605 nucleotides of DNA from a phage. The stretch lies in sequence record KM389308.1. One strand, 5' to 3'. The position numbers and the translations under genes are program-made. The notes under the pieces were generated by a model that was not told the DNA's origin, made no database searches, and saw only the letters and a program-made list of their open reading frames with translations. The stretch's first letter is position 1. Each line of letters starts with the position of its first letter. Of this stretch, positions 1 through 605 are shown one piece after another.

Positions 1-6
1 AACACC

Positions 7-12
7 AGGGAG
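7..12 (+). promoter_or_regulatory. Candidate Shine-Dalgarno (AGGGAG) for the ATG at 23
   Basis: AGGGAG read directly from the sequence; the 10-nt spacer to the ATG is at the long end of the functional range. If the ORF really continues upstream, this is just internal coding sequence. Confidence 0.3.
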
Positions 13-22
13 CACCACCAAC

Positions 23-286
23 ATGCGCATCAGCAACATCGAATGGCTGAAGAAACGGATCGAGTTCATCAGGAAGCTCGGAAAACAGACCGCACGACAG
101 AGACAGATCATTGACCTGCTCGACAACGAGGACAGACTCACAGAACAGGAACGCAAACTTCTCCACGTACTGGCAACAGCCGAAAAAAACGACTTACAGG
201 CACAGGAGAGCGAACGAAAACAGGCGATCCAGAAACGAATCGAGGGGAAGAAACAACGACGGGAACGCAATCACCGGCTCTTCTAG
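23..286 (+). CDS. Hypothetical small basic, predicted all-helical protein (87 aa from first ATG). May instead be the C-terminal part of a longer protein starting upstream of the window, for example the last gene of a mob/accessory operon reading toward oriV.
   Basis: Uninterrupted frame from ATG at 23 to TAG at 284-286; the same frame has no stop back to nt 2. AGGGAG at 7-12 lies 10 nt upstream of the ATG. The coding strand is purine-rich and T-poor. The product is rich in K/R/E/Q with amphipathic-helix periodicity (e.g. IEWLKKRIEFIRKL) and a very basic C-terminus (KRIEGKKQRRERNHRLF). No similarity to the Rop sequence (MTKQEKTALNMARFIRSQ...) that I can see. Function is not assignable from sequence alone. 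Confidence 0.6.
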   Translation: MRISNIEWLKKRIEFIRKLGKQTARQRQIIDLLDNEDRLTEQERKLLHVLATAEKNDLQAQESERKQAIQKRIEGKKQRRERNHRLF

Positions 287-340
287 CAGCGGGGCTACTG
301 ATCGAAGCAGGACTGGTGGACACAAAAACAGGCGAGCTAT

Positions 341-380
341 GCTATAAAAAAGATATGATATTACAAAGACTTAAACCCAT
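341..380. other. AT-rich intergenic block between the ORF and the replicon-homologous segment
   Basis: Direct count: 10 G/C in the 40 nt gctataaaaaagatatgatattacaaagacttaaacccat, against roughly 50-60% GC in the flanks. Contains A6 and TATA-like runs. No convincing -35/-10 pair with correct spacing on either strand. Confidence 0.5.
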
Positions 381-412
381 TGAGCACGATCTAGACACAT
401 GCCCAAACCCAG

Positions 413-605
413 ACGCGTAAGTGTTCCCGTTCACGTTCCGGTGCCCTGGTGCTTCCTCGCTCATTCGCTCGCTACGCTCGGTCATGAGACTGCGGCGAGC
501 ACTACCACCTCAATCATGCGGTAAGCCGCACCATTGCTGGGCTGAGAGGAGAAAACCGCCGGAAAGCCCGCTGCTCAAAAAGACGCCGAAAGGCGCTGTT
601 ATCTG
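413..605. other. ColE1/pMB1-family plasmid replicon segment: region immediately downstream of oriV, truncated by the window edge (oriV, RNA II and RNA I expected beyond nt 605, RNA II on the minus strand)
   Basis: By-eye alignment to the recalled pBR322/pUC top strand (cttcctcgctcactgactcgctgcgctcggtcgttcggctgcggcgagcggtatcagctcactcaaaggcggtaatacgg...). Window 451-463 gcttcctcgctca matches 13/13; the next 20 nt match about 16/20; ctgcggcgagc is identical; tgcggtaa and the ggaaag...caaaag...aaagg pattern are retained. Further left, gcgtaag (415-421) also matches. Orientation is the pBR322 top strand, i.e. antisense to RNA II, so a fork from oriV would enter from the right. Confidence 0.75.
451..540. 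other. Putative primosome assembly site (PriA/factor Y n-prime-type pas) homolog, with stem-loops at 476-500 and 511-536
   Basis: Stem gctcg (476-480) pairs with cgagc (496-500) around a 15-nt loop. The recalled pBR322 homolog has cgctcg / 15-nt loop / cgagcg at the same place, so the stem is conserved while the loop sequence differs. A second imperfect hairpin is caat-ca-tgcgg-taag-ccgca-cc-attg (511-536). Assignment as pas rests on my recollection that the pBR322 L-strand factor Y site maps about 150 bp downstream of oriV. Confidence 0.4.

Follow-up and report, generated by a model that had tools for sequence, protein, structure and literature searches.

The DNA analysed here, a stretch of 605 nucleotides from the phage sequence record KM389308.1 that is called the window at its full length, opens with an 87-codon open reading frame (ORF) on the plus strand. 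The initial annotation had portrayed this ORF as a novel small basic helical protein, set beside bom/oriV in the slot where a ColE1-type plasmid would carry rop or the end of its mob operon. The basic and helical character was confirmed: 48% of the residues of the 87-amino-acid (aa) product are K, R, E or Q, its net charge is +9, and helices were predicted at residues 3-18, 24-34 and 41-95, the structural model being nearly all helix. Comparison with related plasmids placed the ORF in a longer gene, and window positions 23-420 very probably hold a copy of the relaxosome accessory gene of the pIGJC156/Col156 MOBQ plasmid group, disabled or mis-sequenced by the loss of one T. The features of the gene are as follows.

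Positions 1 to 22, plus strand: 5' untranslated leader with a Shine-Dalgarno-like GGGAG at 8-12; these are the last 22 bases of the 176 bp gap between mobA and the ORF which, in relatives, holds the origin of transfer (oriT).

Positions 23 to 286, plus strand: the reported ORF, 87 codons from an ATG start to a premature TAG at 284-286, covering an N-terminal domain, most of a long central helix and the basic patch KKQRRERNHRLF.

Positions 279 to 286, plus strand: site of the one-base deletion, where the window reads TCTTCTAG and its relatives TCTTTCTAG; TT instead of TTT at 281-282 creates the TAG at 284-286.

Positions 283 to 420, plus strand: the last third of the gene, here out of frame, comprising 45 codons (LAAGLLIEAGLVDTKTGEL...PNPDA) and TAA at 418-420, with nearly all of the TraD-homology domain and the signature motif of the family, AGLLIEAGLVDTKTG.

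All 605 bases were matched by 597 plasmid records, 579 of which are typed as mobilisable and nearly all of which come from Escherichia, Salmonella, Shigella and Klebsiella. The match was present on plasmids of 554 of the 5426 complete E. coli genomes (∼10%) and never on a chromosome. The closest match was the 5328 bp E. coli plasmid pLH85-a-D with 99.7% identity, followed by pIGJC156 and its relatives with ∼95%; no sequence with 100% identity to the window was found among the complete E. coli genomes or the PLSDB plasmids. The relatives are typed Col156 and carry a MOBQ relaxase, and the carrier of this mobilisation gene is a common small MOBQ-mobilisable E. coli plasmid type.

In five of five complete plasmids (pLH85-a-D, pIGJC156 and three more), the coding sequence (CDS) that starts from the same ATG is 399 bp long and specifies 132 aa, which corresponds to window positions 23..420 for the intact gene. 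Alignment of the window to the two closest plasmids revealed a single gap in the window, at column 281 within a TTT run, by which CTCTTTCTAG is changed to CTCTTCTAG. When positions 283-420 are read in the next frame, the 45 missing residues, LAAGLLIEAGLVDTKTGELCYKKDMILQRLKPIEHDLDTCPNPDA, are recovered and are followed by the normal TAA. By this alignment the ORF makes up the 5' two thirds of a gene with 132 codons, the frame of which was lost by a one-base deletion. The end of the ORF at position 286 is therefore an effect of the one-base gap and does not mark where the gene naturally stops, and the 165 bp interval behind it, previously judged too short to accommodate rop, is the frameshifted 3' third of the same gene. 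In close and distant relatives this third is kept, and the motif with the highest conservation in the family is encoded by it. The largest protein clusters of the family are 130-132 aa long, P0007 with its 1741 member sequences being one of them.

No stop interrupts frame 2 between base 2 and the TAG at 284-286, and ORFs of 78 aa and 61 aa overlap the 87-aa ORF in other frames, so that ORF length alone was not decisive. We calculated the ratio of non-synonymous to synonymous differences per site (pN/pS) by Nei-Gojobori counts for the five plasmids and the restored window, leaving out near-identical pairs, and obtained values of 0.13-0.28 for codons 1-87 and of 0.19-0.62 for codons 88-132. Both parts of the gene are coding and under purifying selection in the relatives. 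As hundreds of homologues exist and pN/pS is low over codons 1-87, the 87-codon ORF belongs to a real gene and is not a chance frame.

The missing T is either a genuine mutation or a sequencing error. Searched as an exact 28-mer, the deleted allele gave 0 matches in the viral, species-representative genome and metagenome contig collections, whereas the intact allele with identical flanks was found on two metagenome contigs. An exact look-up of the 87-aa product in a gene-position index had suggested other carriers of the truncated protein; these were ruled out, as the three places shown were genes cut by contig ends and still possessing TTT.

Several further observations concern the surroundings of the deletion. 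The window differs from pIGJC156 at one position in 1-283 and at nine positions in 286-386 (synonymous differences, pS, 0.018 versus 0.154), which marks a mosaic boundary, and the one-base deletion is located at the junction between the two segments (1-283 and 283-386). The metagenome contigs L003-L005 end within 1-2 bases of this junction, as if assembly graphs branched there. Internal frame shifts, deletions or truncations were also seen in many database entries of the family (P0100, P0110, P0121, P0123, P0124 and P0130); the calling of so small a gene is unreliable, and assemblies commonly contain indels in it.

The ATG at position 23 is the annotated start in the relatives, and the N-termini of distant homologues align there; the leader (1..22) is identical to the end of the corresponding gap in pLH85-a-D. 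Some gene callers start 40 codons further upstream and thus obtain proteins of 172 aa (P0001 and P0005). The additional residues fall in the conserved non-coding oriT gap, and the 40-codon extension of P0001 and P0005, which begins inside oriT, is false. An extension of the frame leftward into an upstream gene, as had been considered earlier, is precluded in pLH85-a-D by an in-frame stop 41 codons before the ATG, namely the TAA of the oriT nick core, and the upstream neighbour mobA lies on the opposite strand in both pLH85-a-D and pIGJC156.

The close relatives of the protein (at least 67% identity) are nearly all named 'hypothetical protein', one being called 'conjugal transfer protein TraD'. 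The 87-aa ORF revealed nothing meaningful when compared with Pfam and NCBIfam and did not match the TraD family (PF06412), and the restored 132-aa protein reached 13.9 bits (E 0.048) over residues 77-106, which is below the PF06412 gathering cut-off of 22.3 bits. Sub-threshold PF06412 matches were obtained for nine of 19 close relatives, with a best E of 0.0039. A hidden Markov model (HMM) was built from these 19 relatives, and its search of 1.84 billion representatives yielded 151 proteins, including relatives aligned over their full length and 140-190 aa long (E 1e-14 to 1e-4). PF06412 was matched by 52 of the 64 relatives that were aligned, the best with 4.5e-13, and several of them score above its cut-off. 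The consensus of these 64 reads ...W L..R..YI.GLK.P...Q.LL.LA......AEKA......RKARDHELY.AAGLLILAGLVD.KTG.P..D...LLGAL. The family profile reached P0160 (E 2e-14) and P0165 (E 1.2e-12), which score 39.4 and 43.9 bits, respectively, on PF06412. In the sister Col156 plasmid NZ_CP077681 (3895 bp), the same slot is taken by a 148-aa protein that was named TraD by the Prokaryotic Genome Annotation Pipeline (PGAP) and scores 34.5 bits on PF06412; BLASTP aligned it with the restored window protein at 30% identity over 117 aa (E 1e-11). The 64 relatives gave scattered single matches only in NCBIfam, and neither the protein nor any of the 64 matched the MbeC/MobC ribbon-helix-helix family PF05713.

Owing to this significant homology to proteins that pass the Pfam cut-off, the restored protein can be placed in the TraD family, as a divergent member that has an additional domain at its N-terminus. 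The novelty proposed for the ORF has thus given way to a link, through intermediate homologues, with a characterised family; the gene is of a known and ordinary kind and could be named mobC or traD-like. In the intact protein, an N-terminal helical domain of ∼75 residues, for which there was neither a Pfam model nor a structural match, is followed by a long helix ending in the basic patch and by a TraD-type C-terminal domain (RRERNHRLFLAAGLLIEAGLVDTKTG...). Only ∼11 residues of the latter stay in frame in the window, since the TAG after codon 87 removes nearly all of it.

In every locus examined, the gene is divergently oriented to a MobA/MobL relaxase gene (PF03389), from which it is separated by 176 to ∼215 bp, and this layout holds on Col156 plasmids as well as in distant relatives with Rep_3 or RPA replicons. 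The 176 bp gap contains an RSF1010-type oriT, in which the inverted repeat GTTTCTC/GAGAAAC is followed by TAAGTGCGC; in pLH85-a-D the motif lies 115 bases upstream of the ATG. An oriT of this type was present in each of the gaps; the sequences are listed below.

pLH85-a-D: GTTTCTCgacgaaggaGAGAAACataTAAGTGCGC

Locus L006: GTTTCTgcccgatagggAGAAACgtcTAAGCGCGCC

Locus L010: GGTTTCTCGACcccgcaggGGTCGAGAAACaacTAAGCGCGCC

Locus L022: an equivalent repeat, then CTAAGTGCGCC

IncQ1 (RSF1010-like) plasmid, upstream of mobC: GTTTCTCgaaGAGAAACcggTAAGTGCGCC

Five plasmids with differences at 12-26% of the synonymous sites of their ORFs show 97% conservation in the gap, which fits a cis-acting site. The gene is part of a transfer module and travels between replicons with the relaxase and oriT, not with the replicon. 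Of the second possibility raised in the initial annotation, the standalone small protein comes close to the truth; a copy-number or maintenance factor does not agree with a gene that accompanies a MOBQ relaxase and oriT onto unrelated replicons (Rep_3, RPA).

A second inverted repeat, CCTTCTAATT...AATTAG..GGAAGG, is situated directly 3' of the nick core at 4414-4446 of locus L001, just upstream of the stretch equivalent to the window, and analogous repeats were seen at the same place in the RSF1010-like L012 (86-108) and in L022 (1229-1252). This repeat may serve the accessory protein as a binding site or function as an operator of the divergent promoters. A 177-aa ORF (L001 2889-3422, minus strand) directly follows the stop codon of the 308-aa mobA. 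It has no Pfam match, is conserved among the Col156 relatives and could encode a partner resembling MobB or a C-terminal portion split off from the relaxase.

The ColE1/rop frame of reference proved to be wrong, because the Rep protein is of the ColE2 type, the relatives are typed Col156 and the Rfam scan revealed no RNAI. The Rep of the window relatives is a ColE2-type primase matching PF03090, and that of pLH85-a-D is 93% identical to ColE9-J Rep over 261 aa. Rfam, applied to the window with a permissive threshold and to the whole of pLH85-a-D, gave no family, ColE1 RNAI included, and the likeness to ColE1 in the window amounts to just 50 bp (451-500, 88%). By these sequence comparisons the plasmid is assigned to the ColE2 type (Col156) and not to the ColE1 type. 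As for Rop/Rom itself, the common ground is a small helical plasmid protein near a replication region with an ssiA-like site; the absence of Rop similarity noted earlier was upheld by BLASTP, which found no alignment. The predicted folds also differ, Rop being a helix-loop-helix protein of ∼63 aa and the window-family protein being modelled with a 55-residue helix and four helices in all, and the Rop replicon has RNAI/RNAII, whereas the window-type plasmid has a ColE2 Rep and no RNAI/RNAII. The right end of the window has the following features.

Positions 443 to 581, no strand assigned: flank of a ColE2-type replicon, 85% identical over 139 bases to ColE9-J 6556-6693, the mobC-to-rep region (E 5e-40).

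Positions 451 to 500, no strand assigned: ssiA-like element (single-strand initiation/primosome assembly site), in which 44 of 50 bases (88%) equal ColE1 1311-1360 (E 2e-13); it is identical in ColE9-J.

Positions 577 to 605, minus strand: part of the putative ColE2-type origin core, CAGATAACAGCGCC, continuing past the window end, then the hairpin GCGCC-TTTC-GGCGT (596-583) and a T run.

The ColE1 segment 1311-1360 is what we take to be the n'/ssiA primosome assembly site. The assignment of the window element as ssiA-like is one of sequence identity only, as its DNA fold was no better than that of shuffled sequences (z −0.6). ColE1 replicons carry ssiA downstream of ori (PMC3167613, PMC2831885). 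The same 60 bases (444-503) were also present at 100% identity in a 92 kb Klebsiella plasmid (H80), and a related stretch was present in a 122 kb E. coli plasmid (H79), which indicates that the ssiA-like element circulates among unrelated plasmids. A core CTATATCAGATAACAGCGC is common to pLH85-a-D and ColE9-J, immediately downstream of rep (L001 5089-5125), in line with the 32 bp ColE2 origin described downstream of rep (PMC6856555, PMC2831885). In pIGJC156 the rep stop lies six bases beyond the window end; the hairpin with its T run looks like the terminator of the convergent rep gene, and a terminator-like site was also predicted there. The window ends inside the origin, the exact placing of which we infer from the shared core.

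By analogy with related systems, the most likely function of the intact protein would be that of a relaxosome accessory protein acting at oriT. The proposed assistance to MobA and the autoregulation are drawn from the literature on Ti TraD, on accessory proteins in general and on MOBQ4 mobC. In analogy to RSF1010/R1162 MobC and Ti-plasmid TraD, the 132-aa protein would join MobA at oriT, would assist cutting by the relaxase through exposure or melting of the nick site, and would probably repress the two divergent promoters in the gap. The replicon is separate from this transfer module and of the ColE2 type, with a Rep primase, an origin just downstream of rep and the ssiA-like site. In the truncated product nearly all of the TraD domain is absent and, if the deletion is real, mobilisation would be expected to be reduced rather than abolished. 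As a rule, binding of accessory proteins to oriT promotes a single-stranded state at nic, and transfer drops when these proteins are deleted (PMC6856555). For the Ti plasmid, two papers describe TraA, TraC and TraD as the presumed constituents of a relaxosome at an RSF1010-like oriT between two divergent operons, and as presumed repressors of both (PMC3907764, PMC4700958, citing Cho and Winans 2007).

The small TraD of Ti and rhizobial plasmids (PF06412, MOBQ2) is the closest of the known systems: its C-terminal domain is homologous by way of intermediates that pass the Pfam cut-off, and its gene likewise adjoins an RSF1010-like oriT, with a relaxase gene of the MobA/TraA type facing away from it. 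A common role as relaxosome component and autorepressor would be expected from what those papers say of TraD (PMC3907764, PMC4700958). However, Ti TraD is essentially the ∼62-residue domain alone, to which the window-family protein adds the ∼75-residue N-terminal domain, and its gene is part of the traCDG operon of a conjugative plasmid, whereas the window-family gene is a single gene on a 5 kb mobilisable plasmid. The window-family protein, with its 13.9 bits, also remains below the PF06412 threshold, and in the window the TraD domain is out of frame.

The MOBQ4 MobC of ColE9-J and pIGWZ12 is encoded at the same place of ColE2-type (Col156) plasmids, with oriT (a 178 bp gap to mobA) on one side and an ssiA-like element followed by the origin on the other. 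In experiments it enhanced mobilisation by 0.6-1.5 log but was dispensable (Garcillan-Barcia et al. 2019, PMC6856555), and no homology to other accessory proteins was found for it by PSI-BLAST (PMC6856555). Nevertheless, it is of a different protein family, being 91 aa long as against 132 aa and giving no alignment in hhalign, and the MOBQ4 relaxase is only remotely similar to that of the window-family plasmids; the pIGJC156 group is absent from the MOBQ4 paper and its supplement (PMC6856555). We observed that the ColE9-J MobC (L013 6729-7004, minus strand) matches the RSF1010 MobC family profile with 27.5 bits (E 1.4e-10 in a single comparison).

Whether RSF1010/R1162 MobC (IncQ1, MOBQ1), and not Ti-type TraD, is the specific counterpart of the gene was considered separately. 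The RSF1010 MobC sequence used for this purpose (motif ERKNETRRKVLVGAMIL) was 100% identical to an annotated 'mobilization protein C'. The order mobA, oriT, accessory gene, divergently arranged, is that of RSF1010, the oriT has the same GTTTCTC/GAGAAAC repeat and a nearly identical nick core (TAAGTGCGC), and both protein families show a basic motif followed by a hydrophobic helix (RK..R..L.GA..L). When the deep family profile was aligned with the MobC family profile by hhalign, these motifs fell into the expected register, but the result was not significant (P 0.066, probability 0.8%), and a shallow family alignment against the single MobC sequence gave nothing. RSF1010 MobC is 94 aa long, is devoid of the N-terminal domain and of a Pfam TraD match, and belongs to IncQ plasmids that also encode MobB. 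A hybrid, P0244 (140 aa), was found by the family profile: its residues 1-87 match the window family HMM with 77 bits, its residues 55-136 match the MobC-family HMM with 44.9 bits (E 1.4e-13 among 263 sequences), and the two parts join at the common basic motif. The gene for P0244 (L022 1322-1744, also in L023) lies opposite a MobA/MobL gene with an RSF1010-type oriT in between. This hybrid shows that the N-terminal domain is a separable module combined with either a TraD-type or a MobC-type C-terminal domain, and suggests that the two C-terminal domains are interchangeable; it supports their functional equivalence, short of proving that the TraD and MobC domains descend from one ancestor. Descent and function specifically shared with MobC, to which the oriT, the gene order, the hybrid and the register of the basic motif all point, is thus possible though doubtful in view of the non-significant hhalign result and of the features that MobC lacks; it would differ from the TraD assignment in the closest relative only, the predicted mechanism being the same. 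Rather unlikely is the broader idea that the N-terminal ∼75 residues are an undescribed oriT-specificity module and TraD and MobC two branches of one superfamily, in which case the 87-aa 'N-domain only' allele, if the deletion is real, might bind oriT as a regulator or act as a dominant-negative.

The remaining alternatives concern the 87-aa ORF as such. Were the deletion real and the ORF a genuine product, its N-terminal domain might act alone as a DNA- or RNA-binding factor in copy number or maintenance; the fragment retains the basic patch and its net charge of +9, and the N-terminal part does combine independently with TraD-type or MobC-type C-terminal domains. We consider this very improbable, as the truncated allele was found nowhere else in the collections searched and the exact 87-aa database entries are contig-end artefacts with TTT, the downstream 45 codons are intact and under selection in relatives, and the gene accompanies the relaxase and oriT instead of the replicon and bears no similarity to Rop. 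Programmed −1 ribosomal frameshifting at CUC UUC UAG would restore the full-length protein, with a stop codon directly after the shift site and an intact frame beyond it. It was rejected on sequence grounds and has scarcely any probability left: every relative has a simple in-frame gene that needs no shift, the TT allele is unique to the window, CUC UUC UAG does not fit the slippery heptamer pattern X XXY YYZ, and the re-pairing of tRNA-Phe on CUU would be poor. Least credible of all is the first possibility offered in the initial annotation, in which a longer mobilisation protein would start upstream of the window and the ORF would be its C-terminal tail. A frame open from base 2 and the 172-aa gene calls would accord with such a tail; it is refuted by the in-frame stop inside the oriT nick core, by mobA on the other strand and by the distant homologues that start at ATG 23, and the 40 extra codons would have to be translated from conserved non-coding oriT.

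The assignment of window 23-420 as a disrupted copy of a relaxosome accessory gene carries little weight for biology at large and is useful for plasmid annotation. It also holds a caution, since through an indel of one base a gene of a known kind passed for a short new ORF with an 'empty' gap behind it. In a paper on this plasmid backbone, an 'orf of unknown function' is listed which may be the gene described here (PMC3364232). With its recognition, the 176 bp upstream gap is marked as the oriT of these plasmids, and a gene that is labelled 'hypothetical protein' almost everywhere gains a testable TraD/MobC-like accessory role in the MOBQ module.

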